In this document: positions 40,259 to 61,568 of the stretch, piece after piece
How positions within the stretch are numbered: the stretch's first letter is position 1
Layout: every line of letters begins with the position of its first letter
From: Bacteroidota bacterium
Lineage (GTDB): Bacteria; Bacteroidota; Bacteroidia; NS11-12g; UBA9320
Length of the DNA stretch: 64,000 nucleotides
NCBI GenBank assembly: GCA_947468275.1
Contig: CANIKO010000002.1
Coordinates: 105,363-169,362 of the forward strand
Direction of reading: 5' to 3'
Made by a program: the position numbers and the translations under genes
The notes under the pieces: generated by a model
Seen by the model: the letters and a program-made list of their open reading frames with translations, nothing else
What the model was told of the DNA's origin: nothing
The model's database searches: none

Positions 40259-40375
40259 ATTCTTTTTCACCATTTAAAATTAAAATTTTTACATTAGTAA
40301 TTTATTTGATATTTGGATCTTGAAATTTGAAATTCTTGGCCTGTTTGTCTTTATTTTTGCCAAAAGTTTTTATTT

Positions 40376-42817: not shown

Positions 42818-43297
42818 ATTGAATTTCCCTCATCATCTAAATTATTACTTTTTTAAATATTTTTATTACCAACTCTGATTTACTTTCCTCTTAGGGTGGT
42901 AATTAAATGAAATTAATTGGTGCGTTTAGGGAAATAGGAGGGCCAATGCCAATTATTGTAGTTGCTGAAATTGTTGGGGGAATACTTATCATTCATAATT
43001 TAATTGCGCCATAAGGACTGCTCCTACCAATTGTAATGGTAAGAATAGAACTTTGGGTAATTATTGAGAACTGCGAAAACTAATTACCGATGATTAAATT
43101 GAGCTAAAAATGGTTACTTCTTATAAAAAAAATCTCCCGACAGTTTTTCATAAAACCACTTTTTCTCGCTGGCAGATTCACAGATGGGCAGTTTACAATT
43201 AAGCAATTAAGCACCTTGAGTTATTTTAGAGGATAATCAGTTGTGATTTTAATCATTGGAGTAATCCTAATACGCCACTGCGCAAATCTGCACCCCT

Positions 43298-44626
43298 TTA
43301 AAACGTATGGGCAAAATTAAAGAAGAACTGATGGTCTTCTTTTGAGATGGCATAATCAAAACGCATCACTGTGTTCACATTCCAGACAATTCTAAATCCC
43401 AAACCTTCGGAAATTCGGTAATTATTGAAGTTTAGGTTTCGCGGCATTTTATCCCAAATTCCTCCAGCATCGAAAAACGGAACGGCACCAAACGCTAAAT
43501 GTTGATTTAATATATTGGTTTGTGCAAATCGGTAGCGCAATTCTAAATTATTAAACGTCATAACACGGCTCATAAACCGCGATTGCTTATACCCCCGCAA
43601 GGTGTGAGCCCCGCCGAGTCCCTCAATACTGCCTTCCGAACTCCATTGGTCTTGATATTCAAAAAATGGGGCATTGCCTGCGGTATATCCCCCCGCTGTT
43701 CTAAATGCTAATACTAATTTTTTGGAGTATTTGGGAAATAGATTTTGGTAAATATTAAAGTGGGCAAACGTTTTATTACAGTTATAGGCCGAGCCAAGTT
43801 TTTTAAGAGAAAGTTCATTGGTTAGCTCTGCAAAAACCCCTTGACCGGGGTCAGTTTCCAAATCGCGGGTATCGTATATCAAACCTAGCTGAAGAAAACT
43901 CACTAAACCTTTCCCCACTCCTAATATTTTCTTTTGAGAAAAATCATTGACTAATAATGAATTTCCAGCAAAAGTTTTGATATTAACCTGAGCCATTTCA
44001 AATCCAACCAAGGCTCTAACTTTTCCTTCCATAAACGACCGTTCGCCACTTACATTTAAAATATATTCCTGTTTTATATAGGTATTAAAAAAAATGTTGG
44101 CTCCTTTAAGAGAGTTTTCGTAGTCTGAATATTTAGCATTATTTACTAAGGCTTTTGAACTGTCGCCATTGGGATAGTAGCTCAATCCTCCTAAGGTTTT
44201 TTCGGTATTTCCAAAATACAATAAATTGGGATTACTTTCATAACCCGCTTCCACTCTTAGGCGCCACTTTGTATTTAAAATATATGGCACGTCCAACCTT
44301 AGCATCATTTCACGCTGGCTTCGAGTGGTATTAAATAATGTAAGATCTATTTTGGCCCTATAGGCGGAATAAGCAAAAAACGGGTCGCTGCGTTTGCCGT
44401 TAAAATACACCGACCCTTCAGCCCCATAACCAAAACCATTTACCGGATCAGAACTTAAGTCGGGGATACCTGTAAAATAAGCGCCTTCCTTTTTATTTTT
44501 CAAATCGTCCTCCGACATTTTTTTTTCATTGGCAATGGCAAATGGCAGTTTAGTAGAATCCCCTATTTGAGCATTAGCCGAAACAAAAGTTATTAATACA
44601 GTCAATAAAAGTAAAGAAAATTTCAT
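43298..44626 (-). CDS. Omp85-family (surface antigen D15-type) outer-membrane beta-barrel protein without POTRA repeats
   Basis: Start at MKFSLLLLTVLITFVSANAQ; GGAHTLRGY, VPFFDAGGIW, GLGFRIVWNVNTVMRFDYAI, C-terminal ...NFAHTF. Confidence 0.55.
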   Translation of the reverse strand: MKFSLLLLTVLITFVSANAQIGDSTKLPFAIANEKKMSEDDLKNKKEGAYFTGIPDLSSDPVNGFGYGAEGSVYFNGKRSDPFFAYSAYRAKIDLTLFNTTRSQREMMLRLDVPYILNTKWRLRVEAGYESNPNLLYFGNTEKTLGGLSYYPNGDSSKALVNNAKYSDYENSLKGANIFFNTYIKQEYILNVSGERSFMEGKVRALVGFEMAQVNIKTFAGNSLLVNDFSQKKILGVGKGLVSFLQLGLIYDTRDLETDPGQGVFAELTNELSLKKLGSAYNCNKTFAHFNIYQNLFPKYSKKLVLAFRTAGGYTAGNAPFFEYQDQWSSEGSIEGLGGAHTLRGYKQSRFMSRVMTFNNLELRYRFAQTNILNQHLAFGAVPFFDAGGIWDKMPRNLNFNNYRISEGLGFRIVWNVNTVMRFDYAISKEDHQFFFNFAHTF

Positions 44627-44778
44627 TTGGGCCAGTGGTGCAGAATTTAAAAAACTATTCAAATTATTAGATTTGCAAAAGTAAGCATAAGCCAACGTCC
44701 TCAATTCATGGAATATTTATTTAATATTGAATTCTAATTTCTGTAATATTGAAACTCAAACAAATTTTAAACCCAATT

Positions 44779-44784
44779 GTTAAC
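44779..44784 (+). promoter_or_regulatory. GTTAAC element 38 nt upstream of the ECF sigma-1 start (candidate -35 of an autoregulated ECF promoter)
   Basis: GTTAAC, then ~5 nt, then TTATT appears 38 and 39 nt upstream of the two paralogous sigma genes. Confidence 0.3.
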
Positions 44785-44816
44785 AACATTATTATCTAAA
44801 CTATAAATACCCGGGT

Positions 44817-45341
44817 TTGAATTTTGAAACACTTTATCACGAGCACAAAAAGCTTGTTTATAACCTAGCCTTGCAGTATGTGCAAAACAGTGAAGATGCT
44901 GAAGAAATAACGCAGGATGTATTTGTGGCAATTCATAAGTCTTTGGATTCCTTCAAGGAACAATCCAAACTTAGTACCTGGATTCACAGAATAACCATCA
45001 ATAAATCACTGGATTTTATAAAAAGCAAACAACGCAAAAAAAGGTATGGTAACTTCATTTCTATATTTACCGAAAACACCAATGAGATAAAATATGAGAA
45101 GCCAGAATTTAATCATCCGGGGGTACAACTTGAGAATAAGGAGGCATTGAAACAACTTTTTAAACGCATCAACGAATTATCCGACAATCAAAAAACCGCG
45201 CTTATTTTAAGTAAAATAGAATACAAACCTCAGGCAGAAATTGCGGAAATAATGAACCTGAGCATAAAGGCAGTCGAATCCTTAATTCAAAGAGCCAAAA
45301 CAAGTTTACAGAAAAAAATAAACATCAACGAAGGAAATTGA
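44817..45341 (+). CDS. ECF-type RNA polymerase sigma-70 factor (module 1)
   Basis: Region 2 (...DAEEITQDVFVAIHKSLDSF...KLSTWIHRITINKSLDFIK) and region 4 HTH (LSDNQKTALILSKIEYKPQAEIAEIMNLSIKAVESL). Confidence 0.8.
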   Translation: MNFETLYHEHKKLVYNLALQYVQNSEDAEEITQDVFVAIHKSLDSFKEQSKLSTWIHRITINKSLDFIKSKQRKKRYGNFISIFTENTNEIKYEKPEFNHPGVQLENKEALKQLFKRINELSDNQKTALILSKIEYKPQAEIAEIMNLSIKAVESLIQRAKTSLQKKININEGN

Positions 45342-45373
45342 AAAAATTAGCGTCAAACTAAGAATAACAAACA

Positions 45374-45649
45374 ATGAACAGCAATAACAAAAAATTATCA
45401 TTGGACCTGTTAGGGCAAATACACAAAGTAGATGCACCGCCATTTTTATTTACCCGCATTAAACAAAGGATTGAGAATACTTGCACCTCAAGGTTTTCAT
45501 TAAAGTTAACCTGGTCAATTGGTCTTTCATTTATTTTAGTTTTGGCATTAAATTTTATGGTGATAAACAAACGTATACATCAAATTAGAAGTGATAATAC
45601 TTTGGTTAATACATTCAATTTAATGCCTGATAATTCATTATATAAATGA
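45374..45649 (+). CDS. Small single-pass membrane protein (candidate anti-sigma factor)
   Basis: 91 aa, one TM (WSIGLSFILVLALNFMVI); position directly after the ECF sigma gene. Confidence 0.35.
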   Translation: MNSNNKKLSLDLLGQIHKVDAPPFLFTRIKQRIENTCTSRFSLKLTWSIGLSFILVLALNFMVINKRIHQIRSDNTLVNTFNLMPDNSLYK

Positions 45650-46104
45650 GCAAAGTAAAAATTTTAAGCCTTCTATCTATTGGATTACTCCTTTCCAATT
45701 TACTCTTAATCGGTTTTATTGTTTTACAAAAACCAATGTATGGAGGTCCTAATGGACCAAGAAGTCTAATTCTGGAAAGGCTGAAGTTTGATAAAGGTCA
45801 GATTGAAAAATATGACGTATTAATAGACGGTCATAGAAAGGAAATACAACACACTGAATTGGAAATCAAAGGTTTAAAAAATACACTTTATGAAAGCCTT
45901 GCCCGGGACTCAAATAATCTTTATAAAGACTCCATCATTAATGCCATTGGACAATGTCAGATAAAAATAGAGTCCATTCATTACAAACATTTCCAGGATG
46001 TTAAGAAACTTTGCAATGAAAATCAGCTACCTGCATTCAACGCACTGACAGAGGAGTTGGCCTCTTTGTTTTCAAGACGGCCTCGAACTATAAACCCAAG
46101 ATGA
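45646..46104 (+). CDS. Membrane-anchored periplasmic helical protein (Spy/CpxP-like?)
   Basis: N-terminal TM then helical region (LERLKFDKGQIEKYDVLIDGHRKEI...); parallels the LTXXQ protein of module 2. Confidence 0.3.
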   Translation: MSKVKILSLLSIGLLLSNLLLIGFIVLQKPMYGGPNGPRSLILERLKFDKGQIEKYDVLIDGHRKEIQHTELEIKGLKNTLYESLARDSNNLYKDSIINAIGQCQIKIESIHYKHFQDVKKLCNENQLPAFNALTEELASLFSRRPRTINPR

Positions 46105-46799
46105 AGAAGCGCTTAGCCTTCTTTCCAATAGTTTTATCATTTTACAGTAATCAACTTCTTGCTCAAAACTTCCGAATACTATCCTTGAATTTTAAACCGA
46201 TGTTCGGCAATTCCGTTCTGCAATTGAATGACTCCGTTTATAAACTGAATAAGAACGACAGCATTCAATTTGAAACCTTGAAATTTTATGTTTCCGCAAT
46301 AGAGTTTTGGAATAATTCAGCACCGGTTTGGATAGAACCAAACAGCTTTCATTTAATGGATGCATCGGACAGCAACACCTTAAAATTGGCCTTTAAAGTT
46401 CCTTCCGATATGATATACGCTGAGATAAAATTTAAACTCGGTATCGACAGTTTAACCAATGTTTCAGGTGCCATAGGGGGCGATTTAGACCCCACAAAAG
46501 GCATGTATTGGACATGGCAAAGTGGGTACGTAAATTTTAAACTGGAAGGGAAAAGCAATCTTTGTCGATCGAGAAAACATGAGTTTCAATTTCATTTGGG
46601 AGGTTATACTCATCCTTACAACGCATTACAAACCATCTCGCTGTTGACTTCCAACCTCCAAGATGTGAGCATTAAATTTGACCTAAAAACGTTTTTAAGC
46701 GATGTGGACTTAGAGAATAAGCCTTCTGTTATGTCACCCAATAAGGATGCATTAATATTATCTAATCAGCTGGGTAAACTCTTTAAAATTAAAGAATGA
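46101..46799 (+). CDS. Periplasmic MbnP-like protein (partner of a di-haem peroxidase)
   Basis: 232 aa, signal peptide; Trp-rich segment GMYWTWQSGYVNFKLEG; 4-nt overlap with the downstream di-haem peroxidase (MbnP/MbnH-type arrangement). Confidence 0.4.
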   Translation: MKKRLAFFPIVLSFYSNQLLAQNFRILSLNFKPMFGNSVLQLNDSVYKLNKNDSIQFETLKFYVSAIEFWNNSAPVWIEPNSFHLMDASDSNTLKLAFKVPSDMIYAEIKFKLGIDSLTNVSGAIGGDLDPTKGMYWTWQSGYVNFKLEGKSNLCRSRKHEFQFHLGGYTHPYNALQTISLLTSNLQDVSIKFDLKTFLSDVDLENKPSVMSPNKDALILSNQLGKLFKIKE

Positions 46800-47833
46800 A
46801 TTGGAGGAGGAATGTTTCGGTTTGCTTATTATTTATATGCGTCTCAGCATTTGTTGCCAGCAAAGATGGACTTTTTAATATTCCTCTAAATTGGCCGAAG
46901 CCGAACTACAATTTTTCAAAAAACCCTTTAACAAAAGACAAAATAGATTTAGGAAGAGCCCTGTTTTATGACCCGATTTTATCCCAAAACAATACCATTT
47001 CTTGTTCAAGTTGCCATTCCCAATTTACCTCATTTGCTCATGTCGATCATGCTTTAAGCCATGGAATTTATGACCGAATTGGAACACGAAATGCACCGGT
47101 GCTGATTAATTTGGCATGGAACAAAACCTTTATGTGGGATGGCGCCATAAACCATTTGGATATGCAAGCACTCGCGCCGATAAGCCATCCCGATGAGATG
47201 GGCGAAAGCATTGAACACGTAATTTATAAACTCAATCAATCTAAAATATATCATCATCTTTTTTTTAAAGCATTTGGCGACAGCATTGCATCAGGTGAAC
47301 ACCTGTTAAAAGCAATTTCTCAATTTATGCTAACTCTGGTGAGTGCCAATTCAAAATACGACAGTATTAAACAAAAGAAATCTGTCCTTACTTTGAAAGA
47401 AAATAATGGTTACCAGTTATTTAAAAAAAACTGTTCGTCCTGCCATACTGAACCTTTGTTTACCAATCAGAAATTTGAAAATAACGGGTTGCCTGTTGAT
47501 TTGGAATTAAAAGATTTTGGAAGAATGAAAGTTACCCAAAACCCAATTGACTCTTTAAAATTCAAGGTACCTACCCTTCGCAATATTGAATTCTCATATC
47601 CCTACATGCACGACGGCCGATTTAAAAATTTAAATGCGGTATTGGATCATTACGTCAGGGGCATTGTAAAAAGTAAAACTTTGGCTTTGCAATTGGAACA
47701 ACCCATTGTATTATCGGCCAATGAAAAGGTAGATTTGATAAGCTTTTTGCTCACCTTAAGTGATAAAAAGTTCTTATTTAATCCCGAATTCGGCTATCCA
47801 AAAAATCTTCTTATATCTTTACCGAAGGATTGA
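46796..47833 (+). CDS. Di-haem cytochrome c peroxidase (MauG/MbnH-like)
   Basis: Two CxxCH haem motifs (CSSCHSQF, CSSCHTEP) with CCP-family spacing; 345 aa. Confidence 0.8.
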   Translation: MNWRRNVSVCLLFICVSAFVASKDGLFNIPLNWPKPNYNFSKNPLTKDKIDLGRALFYDPILSQNNTISCSSCHSQFTSFAHVDHALSHGIYDRIGTRNAPVLINLAWNKTFMWDGAINHLDMQALAPISHPDEMGESIEHVIYKLNQSKIYHHLFFKAFGDSIASGEHLLKAISQFMLTLVSANSKYDSIKQKKSVLTLKENNGYQLFKKNCSSCHTEPLFTNQKFENNGLPVDLELKDFGRMKVTQNPIDSLKFKVPTLRNIEFSYPYMHDGRFKNLNAVLDHYVRGIVKSKTLALQLEQPIVLSANEKVDLISFLLTLSDKKFLFNPEFGYPKNLLISLPKD

Positions 47834-47873
47834 AATTTTAAAATCGTCAAACCATAAGATCAAAAAAAAATAT

Positions 47874-49619
47874 ATGCATAAAACAAAGCACCCGATTTTT
47901 CTTCTGTTTTTTTCTAGTCTTCTTATTTTATTATCAAGCAGTCAAAGCAAGGCACAATACAACACCCTATGGATACCCGACACGCTTTCGGGGACCAATT
48001 TTAACCTGAATATCAAAGATACCTTCGCGCAAATTGTGAGCAAGGGAAACCAAACTATTACCGGAGGTATAAACGGTAAATTCTGGGGTCCGACCTTGTT
48101 CATTAAAAAAGGAGATGTGGTGCATATGAATGTTAAAAATAATCTGAATGATTCCACAACACTTCACTGGCATGGTATGCACCTGCCTGCAGTAATGGAT
48201 GGAGGTCCGCACCAGATCATTCCACCCGGCACTCTTTGGCAACCTTACTGGAAAGTGACGAACAACGCTGCAACCTATTGGTACCATCCCCATTTACACG
48301 AAATGACCATGGATCAGATCACCAAGGGATTAGGAGGATTGATTATTGTGAGAGACAGCATAGAATCTGCTTTGGCCCTGCCAAGAAAGTACGGTGTGGA
48401 CGATATTCCATTGGTATTAACGGATCGTGACTTTAACACTTCCAATCAATTTGTGGCGGTGCCTTATGGCGACAGTATGATGGTAAACGGAACGCTTCGT
48501 CCTGAGTTCTCTATTCCCGCACAGGTGGTGAGATTCAGAATTCTGAATGCCGCTATTGAACGTTCCTATAATCTTGGTTTCAGCGATAACAGGGCCTTTC
48601 TTATCATAACTTCCGACGGTGGACTATTAAATGCTCCGGTTTCTGTGACTAGATATTTATTGCATGCAGGCGAACGCATTGAAATTCTGGTCAATTGCGT
48701 TTCACAATCGGGCACTTCACTGGATTTAAAAGCCTACAATTCCACCTTGGGCAATTTTGTTGCCGGAGGCGAAGCCTTTGTCAATGGCCCCTTTGCCAAT
48801 GCATTAGGCAAAAAAGATTTTAATATTCTGCATTTAAAAATAGGTGCGATAACCGGTTCGCCAATTACAAACATACCAAGCACCCTGACCAATAATAAAA
48901 CCCTTAATGCGGCTGATGCAGTTGTTACAAGAAAAGTGACCATCAGTGACAGCGCAGGTGTTAAAGTCCCTACGATTCTCGGTCCTAATGCATTTATAAT
49001 TAACCATAAACTATTTAAGTTGGATAGAAACGAATATAATGTCCCATTGAACAATACCGAAATTTGGGAAATTACAAGTACATCCGTTTTCGGGCATCCT
49101 TTTCACATTCACGATGTGGAGTTTAATATTTTAACTGTGAACGGTGTAGCTCCGGCAGCAGCCCAAGCAGGATGGAAAGACGTGGTTTTTGTTCCTGGGA
49201 AAACAGGAACAACCCCTTCCGTTGTGAAATTCATCGCAAAATTTGATGACTATGCGGATGCCTCTCACCCGTTTATGTTCCATTGTCATATTTCATTGCA
49301 TGAAGACGAAGGTATGATGGGTCAGTTTTTAGTTACTAATTCCTCCACAGGAGTAAAAGCGCTTCAAAAATCAGAACATGCATTTATTGTTTACCCAAAT
49401 CCGGCGAACAATAAATTATATTTCCAGTTTAATAATCAAGAAATGAAAGCATATTATGTCAGGATTATTAATGAATTAGGTAAAACTATTATAATGCTCC
49501 CAAGTCCTGAGTTGGAAAAAGGAATTGATGTCAGCAGCATTGCGGCAGGTATTTATTTGATTCAGTTAACCGAATTTGGAACCAAAATATTAATAACACA
49601 AAAGTTTATTAAAGAATGA
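47874..49619 (+). CDS. Multicopper oxidase with T9SS C-terminal sorting domain
   Basis: HWHGMHLP, WYHPHLHEMT, HPFHIHDVEF, HCHISLHEDEGMMGQF give the four Cu-binding His motifs; CTD tail IVYPNPANNKLYFQF...GIYLIQL. Confidence 0.8.
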   Translation: MHKTKHPIFLLFFSSLLILLSSSQSKAQYNTLWIPDTLSGTNFNLNIKDTFAQIVSKGNQTITGGINGKFWGPTLFIKKGDVVHMNVKNNLNDSTTLHWHGMHLPAVMDGGPHQIIPPGTLWQPYWKVTNNAATYWYHPHLHEMTMDQITKGLGGLIIVRDSIESALALPRKYGVDDIPLVLTDRDFNTSNQFVAVPYGDSMMVNGTLRPEFSIPAQVVRFRILNAAIERSYNLGFSDNRAFLIITSDGGLLNAPVSVTRYLLHAGERIEILVNCVSQSGTSLDLKAYNSTLGNFVAGGEAFVNGPFANALGKKDFNILHLKIGAITGSPITNIPSTLTNNKTLNAADAVVTRKVTISDSAGVKVPTILGPNAFIINHKLFKLDRNEYNVPLNNTEIWEITSTSVFGHPFHIHDVEFNILTVNGVAPAAAQAGWKDVVFVPGKTGTTPSVVKFIAKFDDYADASHPFMFHCHISLHEDEGMMGQFLVTNSSTGVKALQKSEHAFIVYPNPANNKLYFQFNNQEMKAYYVRIINELGKTIIMLPSPELEKGIDVSSIAAGIYLIQLTEFGTKILITQKFIKE

Positions 49620-51199
49620 GAAAATTCCTAATAGGTTTTGCTTCAGTAATATGTTCCTTAAATTCCTATTCGCAGAGAAATATAGTCCTTATTATCGCTG
49701 ATGATTTAGGTACAGATTATTGTGGTTTTTATGAAGACCACCAAGACACTGTCGACATACCTAATATTAGGGCTTTGCTCAGAAAGGGTGTGCGCTTCAG
49801 CAATGCAATGTCCAATCCGGTTTGTTCTGCCACCCGTGCCGGCATTTTAACAGGGCGATATAGTTTCAGGACTGGAGTTGGTGGAATTGTTGGAGGAGCC
49901 GGCGGTTCCAATCAGTTGGATACTTCCGAAATTACAATACCGCGATTATTAAAAAAGTTTAATCCAATTATTGCAAAGGCTGATATTGGGAAATGGCATC
50001 TTCATCAGGCAATGCCAATTTCCAACCTTTTAAATCCCAATAGATTGGGATACGACCATTACGAAGGTCCTTTTATTGGTCAGTTGCCAAGCTATACCAA
50101 CTGGACAAAATATACTAATGGGGTGGCAAGCACAATAACAACCTATGCCACCACAGAAAATGTGAACAATGCAGTTACCTGGATTAAAATGCAAAATTCA
50201 AAACAATTTTTTCTTTGGTTGGCTTTTAATGCGCCTCATGCCCCTTATCATTTGCCACCTGCAGGTTTACATACCTACACTAATTTGAGTGGTACACCAT
50301 TAGATATTTCTAAAAATCCAAAATCCTATTTTAAAGCCATGCTTCAGGCGCTTGACCATGAGATTGGTCGTTTTTATGATTCATTAAAAAAAATGAATCG
50401 CTTTGACAGCACCGATTTTATTTTTATCGGTGATAATGGAAATACTACCCAAACTGCGCAAATTGCAAATACTGACAAAGCCAAAGGCACAGTTTACCAA
50501 TATGGAGTGCATGTTCCTTTTATTATTTCTGGGCCTTCAGTAGTTAATGGAGGCAGAAAAAGTGATGCTCTAGTTAATACTGCTGATATTTTCGCAACCG
50601 TACTTGATTTATTTGGAGACAAGTCATGGCCGACGCTAATACCATCAAACAAGCCGGTGGACAGCAAAAGTATTTTTCCCATTTTAAAAAACACGAGCAC
50701 AGAAATACGTCCTTGGCAATTTTGTGAAAATTTTAAATTAACACCGGATTCAACAGATGGAAAAGCCATGCGAAACAAGGAATTTAAACTCATCAAATTG
50801 GATTATGGTAAAGAAGAATTCTATAACTTAAATACTGACCCCGATGAATTAAATGATTTGTTAAAAGGAAATTTATCTTCAATAGAACAGACCAATTTCA
50901 ATTATTTGTGCAGTGAAATGACAAAATTGATTGGCAAGGGATCCTTCTGTAACAGTTCATCCGACATAAAAAATATTGTAGATCAGAAATCAGATATTTA
51001 TCCTAATCCTTTCCATGCCTATATTCACAGTGAATCCTTTACGGATCAGGACATTTATGAACTTACCGATTGTATGGGACAAATCAGATTCACCGGAAAA
51101 AACATAGAACTTCAAAATTTCTCAAACCTTCCAACAGGTGTTTATTTCCTTAAAATTTCAAACAATAAAAATCAAACCATAAAATTATTAAAAGAATAA
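49616..51199 (+). CDS. Sulfatase-family (alkaline phosphatase superfamily) enzyme with T9SS CTD; variant CSATR active-site motif
   Basis: IIADDLGTDYCGF...SNPVCSATRAGILTGRY...GKWHL...; C-terminal DIYPNPFHAYIHS...GVYFLKISN. Confidence 0.75.
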   Translation: MRKFLIGFASVICSLNSYSQRNIVLIIADDLGTDYCGFYEDHQDTVDIPNIRALLRKGVRFSNAMSNPVCSATRAGILTGRYSFRTGVGGIVGGAGGSNQLDTSEITIPRLLKKFNPIIAKADIGKWHLHQAMPISNLLNPNRLGYDHYEGPFIGQLPSYTNWTKYTNGVASTITTYATTENVNNAVTWIKMQNSKQFFLWLAFNAPHAPYHLPPAGLHTYTNLSGTPLDISKNPKSYFKAMLQALDHEIGRFYDSLKKMNRFDSTDFIFIGDNGNTTQTAQIANTDKAKGTVYQYGVHVPFIISGPSVVNGGRKSDALVNTADIFATVLDLFGDKSWPTLIPSNKPVDSKSIFPILKNTSTEIRPWQFCENFKLTPDSTDGKAMRNKEFKLIKLDYGKEEFYNLNTDPDELNDLLKGNLSSIEQTNFNYLCSEMTKLIGKGSFCNSSSDIKNIVDQKSDIYPNPFHAYIHSESFTDQDIYELTDCMGQIRFTGKNIELQNFSNLPTGVYFLKISNNKNQTIKLLKE

Positions 51200-51200
51200 C

Positions 51201-52562
51201 ATGTACAATTTAAAGAGAAAATTAATGGTGCTCAGCTTGCTTTTTACAAGCATTGCCTCAAATGCACAAACCAATCCTGCCATTCTGAATTGGCTTCAAA
51301 ACACTACAAACATAACAGGTAGACATTATGTAAAAGGCAATTCCACCGCCATTACCGATGCAACTTTAGCCAATGTTCAAAATGTTAAATACTCTGCAGA
51401 TTGGGTTTACATAAGCACCCAGGGGATTCCTGCCTATGTTACGGGACCATTTTTGGACAATAACCCATCATTGGCAACCGCCCAAAATGCAATTTTTAAA
51501 ATCTCCTTAAAACCTGTTAAAAACCCGGGAGCATTTACTGCCACCACAGGAGGAAATATTGGTATTTTTATCAATGGTGTAGCCTTGTTTGATTACCGCG
51601 ACGGAGTTTCCTGGCAAAACAGTTCAAGTTCTTTAAAAGGCGGTCCTTCAGGCGGAATTGGGGATGGTGTTTGGAACCGCGATGCCGTGGTTGGTGAAAA
51701 GTTAGGTTTTGATTGTTCCAAAGGACACCCAGCCATGGGCAATTATCATCACCACCAAAATCCAAGTGCCTTTAAGCTGGACCTTACTGTGATATCCACT
51801 GTGTGTAATTTATACGATGCTGACGGATTGTATGTCATCGATAGTACAAAACATTCTCCATTATTGGGTTTTGCTTATGATGGATTTCCGATTTATGGAG
51901 CCTATGCCTACAAAAATGCAGATGGTACCGGTGGAATTACCCGCATGAAATCGAGTTATACTTTGAGAAATATTACCAAACGCATTACGTACTATACCGG
52001 AACCAATGTAACTGCAGGTCCTGATGTTGATGCCACTTATAAATTGGGTTATTTCAGAGAGGATTACCAATACAATACCACCTCTGCTGCCACTCCCGAT
52101 TATTTGGATGAACATAACGGACGTTTTTGCAAAACCCCGGAATATCCGGATGGTATTTATTGTTATTACGCCACCGTAGATAAAAATTGGAACTCTGCTT
52201 ACCCATATATAGTTGGTCCTACTTTTTATGGAACAAAAACTGCCGCTAAAGTAACAAGCATTGCCGAAACGGTTCAAACCTTCGCTCCACCGGTGGCTAT
52301 TCAGAAACTTGAGAACAATCAAATCTCTGTTTTTCCAAATCCGAGCAGCGATTTAATTGCCGTGCAACTGAACGGTTTATCGAGAGAAAATACAACCGTT
52401 TCCCTGTATGATTTAAACGGGCGAATGATTCAAAATACTGTCATAAATCAGGGAAGTACCATTGTTTATTTCGATACCAAAACTATATATGCTGGAGAAT
52501 ATATAGTTAAAATTTCTAACGATAAGGGTTCAATTACCAAAAAGGTTGAAGTTTATAAATAA
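51201..52562 (+). CDS. YHYH-family secreted protein with T9SS CTD (paralog of 58704..60326)
   Basis: NGVALFDY, NYHHHQNP, shared motifs with the downstream YHYH protein; CTD ISVFPNPSSDLIAVQL... Confidence 0.5.
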   Translation: MYNLKRKLMVLSLLFTSIASNAQTNPAILNWLQNTTNITGRHYVKGNSTAITDATLANVQNVKYSADWVYISTQGIPAYVTGPFLDNNPSLATAQNAIFKISLKPVKNPGAFTATTGGNIGIFINGVALFDYRDGVSWQNSSSSLKGGPSGGIGDGVWNRDAVVGEKLGFDCSKGHPAMGNYHHHQNPSAFKLDLTVISTVCNLYDADGLYVIDSTKHSPLLGFAYDGFPIYGAYAYKNADGTGGITRMKSSYTLRNITKRITYYTGTNVTAGPDVDATYKLGYFREDYQYNTTSAATPDYLDEHNGRFCKTPEYPDGIYCYYATVDKNWNSAYPYIVGPTFYGTKTAAKVTSIAETVQTFAPPVAIQKLENNQISVFPNPSSDLIAVQLNGLSRENTTVSLYDLNGRMIQNTVINQGSTIVYFDTKTIYAGEYIVKISNDKGSITKKVEVYK

Positions 52563-52587
52563 TTGAATGTAATATTGATAATCAACG

Positions 52588-53070
52588 ATGAATAAAACGG
52601 CTATTAGGATAATGGTTTTTGCTATAAGCCTTTTATTTAACAATGTTGCTTTTTCTCAAAATATTTCTACAATTAGATTTGAGACTCTCCAGCAGCGGAT
52701 TACCTCAAATCCTGATACCGTTTATGTCGTTAATTTCTTTGCATCGTGGTGTGCACCCTGCATTCAAGAAATTCCTGATTTTTTGAAGTATGCTGAAGAT
52801 AATAAGAATGAGAAAGTAAGGGTGATTTTTGTGAGTCTGGATTTTAAAAAAAACATGTATGAGAGTTTGTTACCTCTGATTCAGAAATTAAATATCAATC
52901 AAACGGTTTATTTATTGGATGAACCGGACGCCAATCAATGGATAGACAAAATTGACAATACCTGGAGTGGTGTAATTCCGGCCACCCTGATACTTCATAA
53001 ATCTTCTGATTATAGAAAGTTTATACCGGCCCCCCTTACTTATAGTTTATTAAAGAAGTTTACAAAATGA
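52588..53070 (+). CDS. TlpA/ResA-like thiol-disulfide oxidoreductase
   Basis: FFASWCAPCIQEIP (WCxPC) in a thioredoxin fold; signal peptide. Confidence 0.7.
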   Translation: MNKTAIRIMVFAISLLFNNVAFSQNISTIRFETLQQRITSNPDTVYVVNFFASWCAPCIQEIPDFLKYAEDNKNEKVRVIFVSLDFKKNMYESLLPLIQKLNINQTVYLLDEPDANQWIDKIDNTWSGVIPATLILHKSSDYRKFIPAPLTYSLLKKFTK

Positions 53071-53678
53071 AACGCACCATTTTTAAAATTCAAAGCGGAC
53101 TGATTATGGTCATCTTTGGTTTCACCCTTATTAATTTTACCATCTTGGAACATGATAATGTCAAAGATTTTAAATTAAAAAATGTGGATGGAAGCTATGT
53201 TTCATTAAGCGATTATCCCGATGCCAAAGGGTTCATTATTGTTTTTACCTGCAATCACTGCCCTTTCGCTAAGCTATATCCTGCCAGATTAAACGAGTTA
53301 AATTTAAAATATAAAAAACTGGGGATACCGCTTCTGGCAATCAGCTCTACAGACACCATCGCCTATGAAGAAGATACCTATGTCAAAATGGTTGAAAAAT
53401 CAAAGAACGAATCTTTTAACTTCCCTTATTTATATGATGGGCAGCAAACGGTTGCTAAAAATTTCAAGGCACAAAAAACACCCCATGCCTATGTGATCTG
53501 GAAAGAAAAAGGGCAATGGACAATCAAATACCAGGGGGCTATTGACGATAATGGTGCTGAACCAGAAAAAGTTGAGAACAATTATATCGCACTAGCTATC
53601 GATCAACTCCTAAATAATAAGGAAGTTAAAAGAAAAGAAACTAAATCCATTGGCTGCCAGATACGCTTTAGAAAATAA
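53067..53678 (+). CDS. Thioredoxin-fold (AhpC/TSA/redoxin-like) protein
   Basis: FTCNHCPFAKLY (CxxC); translationally coupled to the preceding gene. Confidence 0.55.
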   Translation: MKRTIFKIQSGLIMVIFGFTLINFTILEHDNVKDFKLKNVDGSYVSLSDYPDAKGFIIVFTCNHCPFAKLYPARLNELNLKYKKLGIPLLAISSTDTIAYEEDTYVKMVEKSKNESFNFPYLYDGQQTVAKNFKAQKTPHAYVIWKEKGQWTIKYQGAIDDNGAEPEKVENNYIALAIDQLLNNKEVKRKETKSIGCQIRFRK

Positions 53679-53749
53679 AAATCGCTTAATTCAGGAATAA
53701 TTAAGAAATTTGTTTTGTCTATGCTTTAAAACAATTCTATTGATATGCA

Positions 53750-53755
53750 GTTAAC
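53750..53755 (+). promoter_or_regulatory. GTTAAC element 39 nt upstream of the ECF sigma-2 start (paired with 44779..44784)
   Basis: Same motif and spacing as upstream of sigma-1. Confidence 0.3.
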
Positions 53756-53788
53756 GGTTTATTCTTATACATTTGGGTTCACTTTCTG

Positions 53789-54361
53789 ATGGAAGAAAAA
53801 GAGTTGTTAAAACTTCTGATTTTAGGTGATAAACATGCATTCAACCAATTGTTAAAACTATATGGAAAAAAGGTATTAAACACTTGTTACCGTTTTCTAT
53901 TAAATGAACACGATGCTGAGGATATTTCACAGGAAGTTTTTATTGAAGTTTTTCAATCCATCCAAGCATTCAGGGGGAATTCAAAACTTTCTACCTGGAT
54001 ATACCGGATTGCCATTGCCAAATGTCTAGATGAAATAAAAAGGAAAAACAGGAAAAAGCGCATCACCTCCATCGGGAAAACATTTCATCTGGACGAAGTG
54101 GTTCACTGGATTGCAGGAGGCTCTTCTCCTGATAAATCTATCAAAGAAAAGGAAAAATTACAGGAAGTAATGCAGGCTTTAAATGCCCTTCCGGATAATC
54201 AAAGAATAGCCTTTACACTGAGTAAGATAGAAGGTTATACAAATTTAGAAATTTCTGAAATTATGAATACCACAACAGTTGCCGTGGAATCTCTGATTTA
54301 CCGCGCAAAAAAGAAAGTCAGCAAAGAATTGGAATTAATTTTAAAAAATACCCATGAATAG
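53789..54361 (+). CDS. ECF-type sigma-70 factor (module 2), paralog of 44817..45341
   Basis: ...DAEDISQEVFIEVFQSIQAF...KLSTWIYRIAIAKCLDEIK...LPDNQRIAFTLSKIEGYTNLEISEIMNTTTVAVESL. Confidence 0.8.
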   Translation: MEEKELLKLLILGDKHAFNQLLKLYGKKVLNTCYRFLLNEHDAEDISQEVFIEVFQSIQAFRGNSKLSTWIYRIAIAKCLDEIKRKNRKKRITSIGKTFHLDEVVHWIAGGSSPDKSIKEKEKLQEVMQALNALPDNQRIAFTLSKIEGYTNLEISEIMNTTTVAVESLIYRAKKKVSKELELILKNTHE

Positions 54362-54701
54362 TGCCAGAAATAAAAATAAGAATCGTCAAATGAAAAGAAC
54401 AAGCATGAATGAATCAGAAATTTTAAAGATTGTTTCTCAAAAACTTGAGGAGTTTGAAGGCTTTAAAGAAATTCAACCTTCTTCTGCCTGGAATAGCTCG
54501 ATGATACAAAAATTGAGTACTTCAAAACAAAAGCCCAAAACTACTTATAAAACAGTCTCCATTGCAGCAGCTTTTGTATTTTTAGTTTTGCTCAACTTTG
54601 GATATCTAAGCAAATTAATGAATCAAAAAGAAGAAAGGGATTTGTCGAGGAATAATGAATTAAGTATTATTTCAAAAGAGTTACTCATTATCAAGCACTA
54701 A
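54354..54701 (+). CDS. Small single-pass membrane protein (candidate anti-sigma factor)
   Basis: 115 aa, one TM (VSIAAAFVFLVLLNFGYL); overlaps the sigma gene stop. Confidence 0.35.
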   Translation: MNSARNKNKNRQMKRTSMNESEILKIVSQKLEEFEGFKEIQPSSAWNSSMIQKLSTSKQKPKTTYKTVSIAAAFVFLVLLNFGYLSKLMNQKEERDLSRNNELSIISKELLIIKH

Positions 54702-54704
54702 ATC

Positions 54705-55202
54705 ATGGACATATTCACCCAAAAAAAAGTATTAACCCGGGTCGTGATTTTTTTGGCTGCGTTAAACATTATTTCTATTGGTTTTTTATGGTATAGTTCC
54801 GGTGGTAAGAAACATGAACCACCCTTGTTTCGTGGAGGTGATTACCGCGATGTTTCGGGTATTCTGAAAAAGGAGTTGGGTTTAACAAAAAGCCAGGAAC
54901 AACAAATCAAGGATTTGCGTGCTGTCTATTTTGAAAAAGAATCGGAATTGGAAAGAACCATTCGAAGTGAAAGAGACTCCATGAATGAAGAGATGTTTAA
55001 CAAGAACACAAATGAGCCATTAATAAAATCTTTAGCCCGCAGGGTTTCTGACAATGAATATAAAATGGAGCTGATGCGATATGAACAGGCAGAAAAATTT
55101 AAATCCATTTGCACGCCTCAACAACTTGAAAAATTTGAAAATCTCGTGAAAGAAATAAGGGATTATTTTAGGCCGGATAATCAACCAAAAAGAAAAAAAT
55201 AA
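54705..55202 (+). CDS. Spy/CpxP-family (LTXXQ-motif) periplasmic protein
   Basis: N-terminal TM; LGLTKSQEQQIKDL (LTXXQ); helical, Lys/Glu-rich. Confidence 0.5.
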   Translation: MDIFTQKKVLTRVVIFLAALNIISIGFLWYSSGGKKHEPPLFRGGDYRDVSGILKKELGLTKSQEQQIKDLRAVYFEKESELERTIRSERDSMNEEMFNKNTNEPLIKSLARRVSDNEYKMELMRYEQAEKFKSICTPQQLEKFENLVKEIRDYFRPDNQPKRKK

Positions 55203-55282
55203 TATTATTAAACAGTGCCAGAAACTAAATTTTTTATCGTCTTTAACATTAAATCATACATTATCAGAATTTTTTAAAAAAT

Positions 55283-56950
55283 ATGATGCCTAAAAACAAA
55301 GCAGCCAAACCATTAATTCTTAGACTGTTCGCAATTTCACTTTTTGTCTTCACCCATGCGTTTCTTTTTGCGCAAACCAAATCCATTATTTTGGGCAGGC
55401 CTACAGATACATCTATTACGGCAAGTATTCTGTTTGATCAAAATGTAAATTATTATCTTGAATATGGCACCCAATCCGGAACTTTTTTAAAAACCACGGC
55501 AGTCTTTGCAAATAAAGCAAACACGCCCGATGAAATAGTCCTGCAAAATCTTTCACCAAATACAAAATATTTTTATAGGATTCAGTATCATCTTTTACCT
55601 ATAAGTTTTTATACTCCAACCCCTGAATACTCTTTCAATACCCAGCGGGCTAAAGGTTCTTCATTTACCTTCACCATTGAGGCTGATGAGCATTTATATG
55701 ACAAGAAAGGGGTAAAAAGCATTTATCAGTTATGTTTAAATAACCAGGCCAAGGACAAACCTGATTTTATGTTGTCTTTGGGGGATATTTTTGGAGATGA
55801 CCACTATCCATTCACCATTACTTCCGCTCAGTTGGATGCCTTGCATAAAGATTACCGGCCATTTTTGGGAAGCATCTGCCACTCTGTTCCGTTTTATGTT
55901 TGTCTCGGAAACCATGAAGGAGAAAATGATTATTACCTTGCGAAAACACCCCCTAACAATTTAGCGGTATGGGGCACGCAGTGGAGAAAGTTCTATTACC
56001 CCAATCCCTACCCAAACGGCTTTTACAGCGGAAATACAGATAATGAACCCTTCGGTATAGGCAATCCTGAAAATTACTATGCCTGGACCTGGGGCGATGC
56101 GTTGTTTGTTGTTCTGGATGTTTACCGGGACGAATGTGACACTTCCGATAAACCCTTAAATTGGGATTGGTCTTTGGGTAAACCACAATATGACTGGCTT
56201 AAAGCAACGCTGGAAGGCAGCACTTCTAAATACAAATTTGTTTTTGCCCATCATATTCGCGGACAGGGCAGAGGCGGTATTACCAATGCCAAATTATATG
56301 AATGGGGAGGTTACGACGGGAAAAACGGAACAACATATAATTTTCCAAACAAACGTCCGGGCTGGGCCAAGCCGATTCACCAGTTGTTTAAAGACAATGG
56401 TGTAAACATATTTTTCCAGGGCCATGACCATTTATTTGCTCATGAAACGATGGACGGTATTACCTACCAGGAAGTCCCCATGCCCAGTGACTCAACTTAC
56501 ATGATTGGCAAATTGGCCAATGCCAATGCTTATGTGTCGGACACTTTAGAGGGGACAGGCCATATCAGGGTGACCGTAAACCCATCTTGTATTAAGGTGG
56601 ATTTTGTTCGGGCCTATTTACCCAAGGATACACTGTCGGGCGTGCATAAAAATGGAGAAGTTGCTTTTTCATACACCATTGGAAACTGCGGTTCATCCGG
56701 AGTTATGCAGCAAACCATAGATGATTTCGTAAAAGTATTTCCAAATCCGGCCAGCAATAAAATTAGCGTTCGGTTTAAAGAAGACCCCAAAAATTATACA
56801 TTAAAACTCACCAATATCCTTGGTGAAACAGTGTTGGAAACCCGAACAAATGAACTTGATGTCAGTGGTTTACAAACCGGGGTTTACTACCTCAATATTG
56901 AGACAGGCAACAATCATTTTGTTAAAAAAGTAATCGTAAATCAAAACTAA
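55283..56950 (+). CDS. Calcineurin-like metallophosphoesterase (purple-acid-phosphatase-like) with T9SS CTD
   Basis: GDIFGDD, CLGNHEG, GHDH metal-binding motifs; CTD KVFPNPASNKISVRF...GVYYLNIE. Confidence 0.7.
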   Translation: MMPKNKAAKPLILRLFAISLFVFTHAFLFAQTKSIILGRPTDTSITASILFDQNVNYYLEYGTQSGTFLKTTAVFANKANTPDEIVLQNLSPNTKYFYRIQYHLLPISFYTPTPEYSFNTQRAKGSSFTFTIEADEHLYDKKGVKSIYQLCLNNQAKDKPDFMLSLGDIFGDDHYPFTITSAQLDALHKDYRPFLGSICHSVPFYVCLGNHEGENDYYLAKTPPNNLAVWGTQWRKFYYPNPYPNGFYSGNTDNEPFGIGNPENYYAWTWGDALFVVLDVYRDECDTSDKPLNWDWSLGKPQYDWLKATLEGSTSKYKFVFAHHIRGQGRGGITNAKLYEWGGYDGKNGTTYNFPNKRPGWAKPIHQLFKDNGVNIFFQGHDHLFAHETMDGITYQEVPMPSDSTYMIGKLANANAYVSDTLEGTGHIRVTVNPSCIKVDFVRAYLPKDTLSGVHKNGEVAFSYTIGNCGSSGVMQQTIDDFVKVFPNPASNKISVRFKEDPKNYTLKLTNILGETVLETRTNELDVSGLQTGVYYLNIETGNNHFVKKVIVNQN

Positions 56951-56959
56951 ATCTCATCG

Positions 56960-58675: not shown

Positions 58676-58703
58676 ATAATTATTGATAAAATTTGAAATG
58701 CCC

Positions 58704-60335: not shown

Positions 60336-61568
60336 ATGCAAAAAATCGTTTACCTGATAGCGCTGTTTATTTCAATGAATTCTTTTGCTCAGTACAAAGG
60401 AACATGCTCGGTTACCCAGGGACCTGCAAGTACAACAGTTACAAATCTGTATTCATGCAGCGGAGGCCGGGTTTCAGGTGTTGGGACCATAAAAGCAACA
60501 GACAATTTAAACTGGACTGTTCCGGCACTTGTTAATTTTACAAACACTGCTTTCCCGTTTTCATCCGACCTGAACAACGCGTGTAATGGAAACAATTATG
60601 CCAATGTTGCAGCCGCTCTGGCAGCCTTAAACGGGACCGATATTGTTACAGTTGACGCCGACGGAGAACTGATAACAGCTTATATTTTCGCCGATAATTA
60701 TTTTGAAATGTACATCAACGGGACCGCAGTTGGAAAAGACAAGGTTCCTTTCACCCAGTTCAACTCGAGTATTATTCGTTTTAAAGTAAAAAGACCATTT
60801 ACCATCGCCATGCTTCTGGTGGATTGGGAAGAAAATCTGGGACTCGGTTCGGAATTAAACGGCGGTTTTGCTTACCATCCAGGCGACGGGGGTATGGTAG
60901 CTGTTTTTAAAGATGCCTCCAATAAAATAATTGCAACCACTGGCAATGAATGGAAAGCCCAGACTTTTTACACGTCGCCCATAACCGATTTGACCTGTCC
61001 ATCCGAATCCGGTACTTTGCGATTGTCTACCAATTGCAGCACCCAAAATTCGAACGATGGCAGCAAATATTACGGACTTCACTGGAGTCGGCCTGCAAAC
61101 TGGATGAATGCCGCTTTTGACGATTCATCCTGGCCATCGGCTTCCACCTTTACCAATGCTACCATCGGGGTTGACAACAAACCGGCTTATACCAATTTCA
61201 CAGCCATCTTTGATGAAGCTTCTGATGATGCCGAATTTATATGGAGCTCCAATGTCATTTTAGATAATGAGGTGATTGTGAGGCACACAGTGGCAGGTAT
61301 CGCTTCTATTTTTAACAATAACTTACCGGATTTGAAAATTCGGATTTATCCTAACCCGGCAAAAAATAGTTTCCAAATTCAAGGAATAGAAGGTTTGTTA
61401 AAGGATAACAACTTCAAAATCAGAATTTTTAATGCATTAGGTGAAAGAGTTTATGAAGCGGATGATTATAATGAAAAAATAGAACTTCCTTTGATACCCT
61501 CCGGAGTTTACTTTATTAAAATCATGAGCGGCAGTGATCAGGTAATACAGAAATTAATTATCGAATAA
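60336..61568 (+). CDS. Secreted hypothetical protein with T9SS CTD
   Basis: Signal peptide ...SFAQ; CTD IRIYPNPAKNSFQIQG...GVYFIKIMSG. Confidence 0.45.
   Translation: MQKIVYLIALFISMNSFAQYKGTCSVTQGPASTTVTNLYSCSGGRVSGVGTIKATDNLNWTVPALVNFTNTAFPFSSDLNNACNGNNYANVAAALAALNGTDIVTVDADGELITAYIFADNYFEMYINGTAVGKDKVPFTQFNSSIIRFKVKRPFTIAMLLVDWEENLGLGSELNGGFAYHPGDGGMVAVFKDASNKIIATTGNEWKAQTFYTSPITDLTCPSESGTLRLSTNCSTQNSNDGSKYYGLHWSRPANWMNAAFDDSSWPSASTFTNATIGVDNKPAYTNFTAIFDEASDDAEFIWSSNVILDNEVIVRHTVAGIASIFNNNLPDLKIRIYPNPAKNSFQIQGIEGLLKDNNFKIRIFNALGERVYEADDYNEKIELPLIPSGVYFIKIMSGSDQVIQKLIIE

Follow-up and report, generated by a model that had tools for sequence, protein, structure and literature searches.

Two putative CnrH/CnrY/CnrX-like ECF units in a Bacteroidota genome with predicted target promoters downstream of the sigma gene

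Which genes are controlled by the two extracytoplasmic function (ECF) sigma factors encoded in a 64,000-nt stretch of Bacteroidota DNA, and are the sigma genes themselves among them? The stretch (NCBI GenBank assembly GCA_947468275.1, contig CANIKO010000002.1, positions 105,363 to 169,362 of the forward strand) is called the window here and is numbered from its first letter. It contains two three-gene modules, each made up of a sigma gene, a gene for a small membrane protein and a gene for a membrane-anchored helical protein. An earlier note on this DNA had described the modules as paralogous and had taken a GTTAAC motif upstream of each sigma gene for part of an autoregulated ECF promoter. 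Our analysis agrees with the description and points away from the promoter. The reading that we favor, with a probability of roughly 0.65, is that these are two separate CnrH/CnrY/CnrX-like ECF units whose sigma-dependent promoters drive the genes for anti-sigma factor, sensor and effectors, with the sigma gene, in this window, left out. It starts from direct observations of gene content, homologies, fold, conserved motifs with their positions, and synteny. The genes of the modules are as follows.

44817-45341, + strand: sigma1, ECF sigma factor of 174 aa with a TTG start (Pfam Sigma70_r2 and Sigma70_r4_2)
45374-45649, + strand: as1, putative single-pass anti-sigma factor of 91 aa
45646-46104, + strand: per1, candidate periplasmic sensor of 152 aa, membrane-anchored, CnrX fold
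53789-54361, + strand: sigma2, ECF sigma factor of 190 aa (Pfam and NCBIfam)
54405-54701, + strand: as2, putative anti-sigma factor of 98 aa (the mechanically called open reading frame, 54354-54701, has 115 aa)
54705-55202, + strand: per2, Spy/CpxP/CnrX-superfamily protein of 165 aa, membrane-anchored, with an LTKSQ motif

Both sigma factors belong to the ECF group (group 4) of the sigma-70 family, with Sigma70_r2 and Sigma70_r4_2 matches above the Pfam cut-offs and scores of 99 and 103 bits with the ECF superfamily model TIGR02937 (cut-off 42.9). They share 40% identity (E 2e-38), and all three component pairs of the modules (sigma factors, small membrane proteins and periplasmic proteins) are homologous, with the genes lying where the earlier note had put its two paralogous modules. 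The further idea that these are duplicated units finds no support in the form of a local duplication: each module is a member of an old family that is widespread independently of the other and has a conserved neighborhood and a regulon of its own. Both sigma families are very common, with over 2,600 clusters apiece at E <1e-10, and that of sigma2 is large, with identities of 65-92%. The length and N-terminus of sigma1 agree with ~2,800 homologs. Among 52 orthologs that reach its residue 1, the aligned start codon is TTG in 25, ATG in 23 and GTG in 3, so a weak start appears to be a trait of the sigma1 family and could hold sigma levels low. The divergent neighbor of sigma1 (43298-44704, - strand) encodes an outer-membrane protein of the Omp85 family whose N-terminal domain is DUF5982.

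A known system with this combination of parts is CnrYXH of Cupriavidus metallidurans, which comprises the ECF sigma factor CnrH, the anti-sigma factor CnrY and the sensor CnrX (PMC6851896). CnrY is a single-pass protein with a 45-aa cytoplasmic domain and a C-terminal portion that is docked in the CnrX dimer (PMC6851896). The small membrane proteins of the window, which the earlier note had correctly read as single-pass proteins of about 100 aa, have a comparable plan. In as1, ~45 cytoplasmic residues are followed by a transmembrane helix and a short periplasmic tail. As single sequences as1 and as2 have no detectable similarity; their families are remotely homologous (hhalign 93.5%, E 2e-7) and have in common the pattern (V/I)xxP(P/S)xx(L/W)xxx(I/L)xx(R/K)(I/L) in the cytoplasmic ~45 aa. 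Both tails are conserved in orthologs, ending in NLMPxNxLY in the as1 family (45590-45649) and in ISKE(L/F)LI in the as2 family (54650-54701). By analogy with CnrY and CnrX, these tails may be the parts that dock into a dimer of the sensor. We infer that the small membrane protein of each module is its anti-sigma factor.

The third protein of module 1 has no match in Pfam or NCBIfam, its family profile finds nothing significant among PDB sequences, and a word-indexed homolog search returned five proteins. An AlphaFold2 model of per1, built from a six-sequence alignment, has a predicted local distance difference test (pLDDT) value of 81.5 and consists of a transmembrane helix (residues 3-27) followed by long helices. 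When this model was compared with the PDB by Foldseek, the top 15 matches were all CnrX or NccX (probability 1.00, target-normalized template modeling score 0.62-0.80). The CnrX matches span the whole CnrX sensor domain and reach scores of 0.70-0.80. per2 scores above cut-off with both Metal_resist (PF13801, 34.2 bits) and LTXXQ (PF07813, 31.4 bits; cut-off 24.3), and its family profile matches Spy (E 1e-6), ZraP (E 1e-4), CpxP (E 6e-3), NccX (E 8e-3) and CnrX (E 0.06). The LTXXQ motif of Spy and CpxP that had been noticed in per2 is present as LTKSQ, and the equivalent motif of per1 is LKFDKGQ. The two proteins are related to each other both as families (hhalign 99.8%, E 1.4e-29, 147 columns) and as single sequences (23% identity, E 2e-7). 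Profiles, hhalign and the structure match thus assign the helical periplasmic proteins of the earlier note to the Spy/CpxP/CnrX superfamily, with the four-helix fold of CnrX indicated by the model for per1 and by PF13801 and the profile for per2.

The conserved residues of the two families differ. Those invariant in the per1 family are Q52, H63, H115, F116, C123, Q127 and, in the transmembrane helix, N18; in the per2 family they are L58, Q64, R72, Q140 and the transmembrane N21, with no invariant His, Cys or Met. The transmembrane Asn codons lie at ~45697-45699 (per1) and ~54765-54767 (per2). An Asn, sometimes an Asp, is also common in the transmembrane helix of the as1 and as2 families (LALNFMV and VLLNFGY). 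These polar residues fit a contact between sensor and anti-sigma factor within the membrane.

The kinship with Spy raises the question of whether the per proteins are sensors at all. They might instead be Spy/CpxP-like chaperones or accessory inhibitors in an envelope-stress regulon, the anti-sigma factor being inactivated by other means, such as regulated proteolysis. Spy is the best solved relative of the per2 family, in which the LTXXQ motif is present and conserved His or Cys residues are lacking, and the per genes lie inside the predicted sigma regulons, just as CpxP and Spy are themselves stress-induced. Spy, CpxP and ZraP are, however, soluble and controlled by two-component systems, whereas per1 and per2 both start with a long hydrophobic helix that would anchor them in the membrane, retain an invariant Asn in it, and are tied to an ECF sigma/anti-sigma pair. 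Their genes always directly follow the anti-sigma gene, the per1 model matches CnrX best and carries an invariant His/His/Cys set, and the anti-sigma candidates have conserved periplasmic tails, as does CnrY (PMC6851896). We consider a purely accessory role unlikely, although it deserves to be kept in view, and treat per1 and per2 as candidate sensors of CnrX-like units in what follows.

For phylogenetic footprinting we assembled three sets of loci: 80 genomic ones carrying a sigma1 ortholog, 80 metagenomic ones carrying a sigma2 relative, and 10 in which sigma2 has a close ortholog. Many of the orthologous sigma upstream regions show a bipartite element whose last letters are CGTCTAA or CATCTAA. 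De novo expectation maximization on 158 of these regions gave cCGcAAGtTTTT-N10-CGTCTAA and converged on cCGcAAG(t/a)TTTT-N10/11-C(G/A)TCTAA, with ~72 sites. The CGTC in its second half is the classical ECF -10 element. The resulting generic position weight matrix (PWM) was scored as two blocks with a gap of 9-11 nt over ~128,000 positions (both strands of the window). Subfamily PWMs for the sigma1 and sigma2 types were built solely from other loci, with the window excluded. The predicted promoters are the following.

45328-45358, + strand: P_as1, predicted sigma1-dependent promoter, ACGAAGGAAATTgaaaaaattaGCGTCAAAC; 20.3 bits, the best generic-PWM match in the window
47822-47852, + strand: P_MCO, second predicted sigma1-dependent promoter, CCGAAGGATTGAaattttaaaaTCGTCAAAC; 18.1 bits, second-best in the window
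54361-54391, + strand: P_as2, predicted sigma2-dependent promoter, GTGCCAGAAATAaaaataagaaTCGTCAAAT; 13.6 bits with the generic PWM, rank 5 in the window
55215-55245, + strand: P_mpe1, weaker predicted sigma2-type promoter between per2 and the first metallophosphoesterase gene (mpe1), GTGCCAGAAACT, 10 nt, TCGTCTTTA

The first two sites share the -35 sequence CGAAGGA (45329-45335 and 47823-47829), a 15-nt spacer and the -10 sequence CGTC (45351-45354 and 47845-47848). P_as1 overlaps the last codons of sigma1, with the end of the site 15 nt and CGTC 19 nt before the ATG of as1. P_MCO overlaps the stop codon of a gene for an MbnH-like peroxidase and lies 25 nt before the ATG of a multicopper oxidase gene (47874). 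P_as2 reads GTGCCAGAAATA, 10 nt, TCGTCAAAT, with CGTC at 54384-54387, and begins on the final base of the sigma2 stop codon. P_mpe1 has a -35 half identical to that of P_as2 and lies ~41 nt before the mpe1 ATG (55283). Both of the two top generic scores in the window fall on the + strand. When the window was simulated 100 times with a first-order Markov model, the maximum averaged 16.0 bits and sites of at least 18 bits averaged 0.15, as compared with two observed. Scores of at least 12 bits arise by chance at ~6e-5 per position (8 sites in the window). One further generic match, at 40360, overlaps the start of frr (ribosome recycling factor, open reading frame from 40376), has a weak -10 half and was judged to be a chance match.

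The subfamily models separate the two sigma factors. The sigma1-type model (74 sites) is nnAnCGAAGGAaaan-N9-atCGTCtAA, with the same spacer length in 69 of the 74, and the sigma2-type model (16 sites) is aaagtGCCaGAAatn-N9-aTCGTCaAA, with the same length in 15 of the 16. The families thus differ in the -35 element and have the -10 CGTC in common. With the sigma1 model P_as1 scores 28.0 bits and P_MCO 26.5 bits, and the next best site in the window reaches 15.0 bits. With the sigma2 model P_as2 scores 36.5 bits (at 54358), as compared with 17.6 bits for the next best site in the window, and P_mpe1 scores 14.1 bits (55212-55248, ACAGTGCCAGAAACTaaattttttATCGTCTTTAACA).

The position of the sites at the junction of the sigma and anti-sigma genes is conserved. 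For a count over 98 sigma1-type and 73 sigma2-type loci, which were not de-duplicated, a junction site was defined as a match that scores 12 bits or more and lies either at the 3' end of the sigma gene or where the sigma and anti-sigma genes adjoin. Such a site is present in 86/98 sigma1-type and 60/73 sigma2-type loci, and a site upstream of the sigma gene in 22/98 and 31/73, respectively; seven of the 171 loci have neither. Autoregulation therefore seems to have been gained and lost within both families while the junction site stayed nearly constant. In the window, no such site lies upstream of sigma1 or sigma2, and neither gene appears to be autoregulated. Every sigma2 ortholog examined with at least 55% identity has an equivalent of P_as2. 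Across orthologs, sigma1-type sites precede the anti-sigma gene (~70), a YHYH gene after mbnH (22), a multicopper oxidase gene (4) or sigma itself (11). Sigma2-type sites lie before the anti-sigma gene in all loci, with further sites before the first Metallophos gene (loci L161-L164 and L168) or after per2 (L002 and L167); those of L168 and L167 are stronger than P_mpe1.

The junction sites could instead be a by-product of coding or translational constraint, from the sigma C-terminus (...SEG) and the start of the next gene, or could be the operator of some other regulator. In the sigma1 family the -35 half does overlap conserved C-terminal Glu-Gly codons. The same bipartite motif with the same spacing recurs, however, in noncoding DNA past the sigma2 stop codon and in another reading frame at the MbnH stop codon, so that the -35 halves of P_as1 and P_MCO are read in different frames. 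Across loci the motif lies at offsets of -53 to +29 relative to the sigma stop codon, and the spacer is AT-rich, unconserved in sequence and fixed in length. Coding constraint therefore does not explain the motif. Other loci have it upstream of their sigma genes, it also precedes YHYH, multicopper oxidase and Metallophos genes, its -10 half is the ECF-type CGTC, and no Rfam match or terminator-like structure coincides with it. We judge both forms of this alternative to be quite improbable.

Other kinds of element were sought in the same region. An Rfam search of 43000-57000 gave no match, and a terminator scan found no terminator-like hairpin at gene junctions. A scan for sigma-70-type promoters, a model inappropriate for Bacteroidota, stayed at background level. 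The housekeeping Bacteroidetes -7 box TAnnTTTG was set aside as a general feature upstream of the sigma genes, being at background in orthologs (18/160, with ~0.08 expected per region). An exact match to it, TACATTTG, occurs at 53770-53777, 21 nt before the sigma2 ATG, and locus L165 has TTCATTTG at the same place; TACATTTG may belong to the promoter from which sigma2 is transcribed. Before sigma1 there is no equivalent TAnnTTTG.

A target promoter at the end of a sigma gene has a parallel. In E. coli, a sigma-E-dependent promoter in or at the end of rpoE (rseA P3) transcribes the anti-sigma genes rseABC, so the junction position is not unprecedented. The likeness is limited: rpoE also has a strong autoregulated upstream promoter, and RseA and RseB are unrelated to as1 and as2 or to per1 and per2.

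The predicted promoters also bear on where the transcripts and the as2 protein begin. The -10 block ends a median of 10-12 nt before the start codon of the anti-sigma gene, and ~5 nt before it in many Flavobacterium loci, so the predicted leaders are very short or absent. The very short leaders that had been proposed earlier are thus expected at the junction sites and not at the GTTAAC sites. Translation of as2 most likely starts at ATG 54405, giving 98 aa, because its orthologs (88-102 aa, most 96-102) start at the equivalent Met and the ATGs farther upstream fall within the predicted promoter or ahead of it: CGTC of P_as2 is downstream of the first ATG of the open reading frame (54354) and 2 nt before the second (54390).

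The sequence around the first junction is a mosaic when compared with locus L001 (44817-46800 versus L001:10001-11990). The sigma1 proteins are 83% identical, but as1, per1 and MbnP are 98% identical, and the junction promoter of L001 is that of the window base for base. This pattern points to recombination, with a breakpoint at the sigma1/as1 junction or close to it. Locus L002 shows a different mosaic, with 65% identity in per1 and 99% in per2.

What remains is the motif upstream of the sigma genes, which occurs at two places.

44779-44793, + strand: the earlier motif before sigma1, GTTAACAACATTATT; unsupported as a conserved element
53750-53763, + strand: the earlier motif before sigma2, GTTAACGGTTTATT; unsupported as a conserved element

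As a fact of sequence the motif stands: GTTAAC at 44779-44784 and 53750-53755, 38 and 39 nt 5' of the sigma1 and sigma2 starts, is followed by TTATT. GTTAAC-N3-5-TTATT occurs at these two sites and nowhere else in the window; 0.41 sites are expected, and two or more occurred in 6/100 shuffles. GTTAAC alone occurs 10 times in the window, with 16.6 expected. Among 1,431 pairs of 70-nt gene-upstream regions from the window, a 6-mer at a matching offset (±1) is shared by 13.6%, and 0.77% have a 5-mer 3-5 nt further on in common as well. The coincidence between the modules is therefore nominally unusual, but the motif was chosen post hoc. In module 1, TTATT also overlaps a weak -10-like sequence, TATCTAA.

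Phylogenetic footprinting, which we treat as a stronger test than coincidence within the window, gives a different answer. GTTAAC is found in 3/158 nonredundant orthologous upstream regions (last 70 nt), with 3.5 expected from composition, and never at -38. This is a background frequency. The motif is lost even in close relatives. Where the window has GTTAAC, the sigma1 relatives L001 and L002 (83% protein identity) have GAAATGTATTAATATCGTAG, and the sigma2 relatives have GCAAGTAAGAG (L165, 86%), GCAAAACATTG (L161, 92%) and GCAAAGCATTG (L002, 88%). With the generic PWM the motif regions score 5.9 bits (sigma1, 44771-44801) and 4.9 bits (sigma2) in a window that has 257 sites of at least 6 bits when gaps of 9-11 nt are allowed, and the subfamily PWMs give -6.9 and -7.5 bits upstream of sigma1 and sigma2. 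With no conservation, background frequency and background scores, and with the strong family-type sites lying downstream of the sigma genes, a shared autoregulated promoter made of GTTAAC as -35 and TTATT, with very short leaders, is highly improbable. GTTAAC as a -35 element was ruled out on the grounds of nonconservation and background scores. As a -10 element (CAAAC-N17-GTTAAC and AAAAC-N17-GTTAAC) it was followed with an AAC-N15-18-GTC/CGT scan, which found such pairs in few orthologs and none in the window, and was dropped once the PWM had placed the sites elsewhere.

The genes that follow each module are its putative effectors.

46101-46799, + strand: MbnP (Pfam MbnP PF20243, 148.9 bits), with a WTW motif
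46796-47833, + strand: MbnH-like di-haem peroxidase (CCP_MauG PF03150, 174 bits)
47874-49619, + strand: multicopper oxidase (Pfam) with a T9SS C-terminal domain (T9SS, type IX secretion system), putative sigma1 effector
49616-51199, + strand: sulfatase (Pfam), T9SS C-terminal domain, putative sigma1 effector
51201-52562, + strand: YHYH protein (Pfam), T9SS C-terminal domain, putative sigma1 effector
52588-53070 and 53067-53678, + strand: two thioredoxin-fold proteins (Pfam), putative sigma1 effectors
55283-56950 and 56960-58675, + strand: two metallophosphoesterases (mpe1 and mpe2), T9SS C-terminal domains, putative sigma2 effectors
58683-60326, + strand: second YHYH protein, T9SS C-terminal domain, putative sigma2 effector
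60336-61568, + strand: protein without an assigned family, T9SS C-terminal domain, putative sigma2 effector
61582-62802, + strand: Lcl_C protein, T9SS C-terminal domain, putative sigma2 effector

The first two form an MbnP/MbnH pair, a WxW-containing MbnP-family protein beside a MauG-like di-haem peroxidase; the peroxidase scores 214 bits with TIGR04039, below the equivalog cut-off of 362.85, and is assigned at family level. MbnP binds copper through a kynurenine that MbnH forms from a Trp of the WxW motif (PMC11951088). The sigma1 effector genes are tightly spaced or overlapping, and no terminator-like sites were found at their junctions. In the majority of the 80 genomic loci, drawn from several Bacteroidota orders, sigma1-as1-per1 is followed by MbnP, the MbnH-like peroxidase and YHYH; in the window the multicopper oxidase and the sulfatase lie between mbnH and YHYH. 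Cultured carriers of the operon include Chryseobacterium taihuense (L044) and Flavobacterium cheonanense (L062). Orthologs of sigma2 are flanked by T9SS-secreted Metallophos, Lcl_C, FGE-sulfatase and arylsulfotransferase proteins. Each module thus appears to have its own set of enzymes, as had been suggested earlier, with sigma1-type sites before as1 and the multicopper oxidase gene and sigma2-type sites before as2 and the first metallophosphoesterase gene.

Locus L001 differs from the window in this region as well. Around its junction (L001 18780-19020), the second thioredoxin-fold gene (trx2) is followed directly by the YHYH gene that corresponds to window 58683-60326, and the sigma2-as2-per2-mpe1-mpe2 block (window ~53775-58692) is missing. 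The ~4.9 kb sigma2-to-mpe2 block is an insertion or deletion relative to L001. The L001 junction fits a CAT(G) microhomology (left side, ...TATACAT|TTGGG; right side, ...GCCCAT|GAAAAA). About 95 nt 5' of sigma2, including the GTTAAC position, are kept in L001 upstream of its YHYH gene. Several metagenome-assembled genome records that carry the operon, a typical one for Bacteroidota (L001, L002, L012, L022, L025 and others), are titled Chitinophaga pinensis, Bifidobacterium breve, Synechococcus or Comamonadaceae, and these labels look unreliable.

Set beside CnrYXH, the two modules have the same three components: an ECF sigma factor, a ~90-aa single-pass anti-sigma candidate (~45 aa cytoplasmic, short tail) and a ~150-aa anchored helical sensor candidate. 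They also have promoters, predicted here, before the anti-sigma gene and before effector genes, as with cnrYp and cnrCp (PMC6851896). The gene order differs, being sigma-Y-X here and Y-X-sigma there, so that the sigma gene lies outside the transcript of the anti-sigma promoter here. The effectors are MbnPH, multicopper oxidase and YHYH proteins or secreted phosphoesterases rather than a resistance-nodulation-division (RND) efflux pump, and the phylum is Bacteroidota. Neither sensor candidate has the Ni/Co ligand set of CnrX: per1 has His63, His115 and Cys123 of its own, and per2 has no conserved ligands. as1 and as2 agree with CnrY in size and topology and have conserved tails, but match no solved chain or Pfam family in sequence.

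Two described ECF groups, ECF281 and ECF290, have a "heavy-metal resistance protein" (PF13801) at +2, and CnrH-type systems make up ECF291 (PMC7826278). By description, the order sigma, anti-sigma at +1 and PF13801-type protein at +2 in ECF281 and ECF290 is the arrangement of module 2. Their anti-sigma factors are of a zinc-finger (ECF281) or RskA-like (ECF290) type, whereas as1 and as2 have no recognizable domain. In Methylosinus, MbnPH pairs are linked to FecIR-type regulators (MbnIRT/FecIRA-type control), and an ECF sigma gene likewise stands beside an MbnP/MbnH pair (PMC3621798). Those systems have a FecR-like anti-sigma factor and a TonB-dependent transducer; module 1 has a short anti-sigma candidate and a CnrX-fold sensor candidate, and its operon has no TonB-dependent transporter.

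Several points weigh against two CnrX-like units with promoters after the sigma gene. The promoters are predictions from conservation, and the generic model behind them was seeded with a consensus picked by eye. P_mpe1 is weak (14.1 bits, rank 5 with its own model). In roughly one quarter to two fifths of the related loci there is a site upstream of the sigma gene too, so the absence of autoregulation is not universal in these families, and read-through from the sigma gene's own promoter may reach the genes downstream. as1 and as2 match no Pfam or NCBIfam family or known anti-sigma domain and have no sequence similarity to CnrY, and the as1 family profile finds nothing significant among PDB chains. 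The hhalign match of the per1 family to CnrX alone is weak (E 0.014). Of the CnrX ligands His42, His46, Glu63, His119 and Met123, in a sequence confirmed against PDB 3zg1, His119 alone is conserved, aligning with per1 H115. With these points taken into account, we still infer that the conserved motifs are promoters used by the adjacent sigma factor.

If this is correct, the modules could work as follows. At rest, the anti-sigma factor would keep the sigma factor at the membrane. A periplasmic signal would alter the sensor. For module 1 this is probably copper or a copper-linked redox stress, acting through His63, His115 and Cys123 of per1, because of the gene content and this invariant His/His/Cys set; for module 2, where per2 lacks conserved metal ligands, it may be an envelope cue other than a metal. 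The sensor would then act on the anti-sigma factor through its conserved periplasmic tail and the Asn-containing transmembrane helices, and the sigma factor would be freed. Free sigma1 would use CGAAGGA-N15-CGTC at the sigma1/as1 junction and after mbnH, and free sigma2 TGCCAGA-N15-CGTC, both where sigma2 and as2 adjoin and ahead of the first phosphoesterase gene. Because the sigma gene comes first and the promoter lies after it, the sigma factor would be outside its own regulon. In the window, induction would thus raise the anti-sigma factor, the sensor and the effectors but not the sigma factor, giving negative feedback without positive autoregulation.

A broader form of this proposal is more tentative. 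In it, the sigma factor would usually stand outside its own regulon throughout both large Bacteroidota families, with negative feedback only, and per1 would be a new copper sensor, with a His2Cys site on a CnrX fold, over an MbnP/MbnH/multicopper-oxidase/YHYH pathway that is partly exported by the T9SS. We regard it as possible but rather doubtful in this full extent. In the narrower reading that we favor, too, the combination seems to be new: two very large Bacteroidota families, a conserved Cys-containing site, unlike that of CnrX, on a CnrX-fold sensor, a dominant and conserved junction promoter and a link to MbnPH.

For few Bacteroidota ECF sigma factors are function and signal known, and the two families described here are very common. 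Module 1 would provide a regulatory handle on MbnP/MbnH outside the methanotrophs, where the biological role of the pair is still open (PMC11951088, PMC3621798), and per1, with its invariant His/His/Cys, offers a candidate metal site that can be tested directly on a fold already solved. In the ECF survey, promoters were searched for upstream of the ECF gene, autoregulation being the usual assumption (PMC7826278). If our reading is true, this standard assumption would fail for these groups, and promoter pipelines that search the region 5' of the sigma gene would miss their design. Should the junction motifs be real target promoters, the regulons of both families would be predictable genome-wide with the sigma1-type and sigma2-type models.

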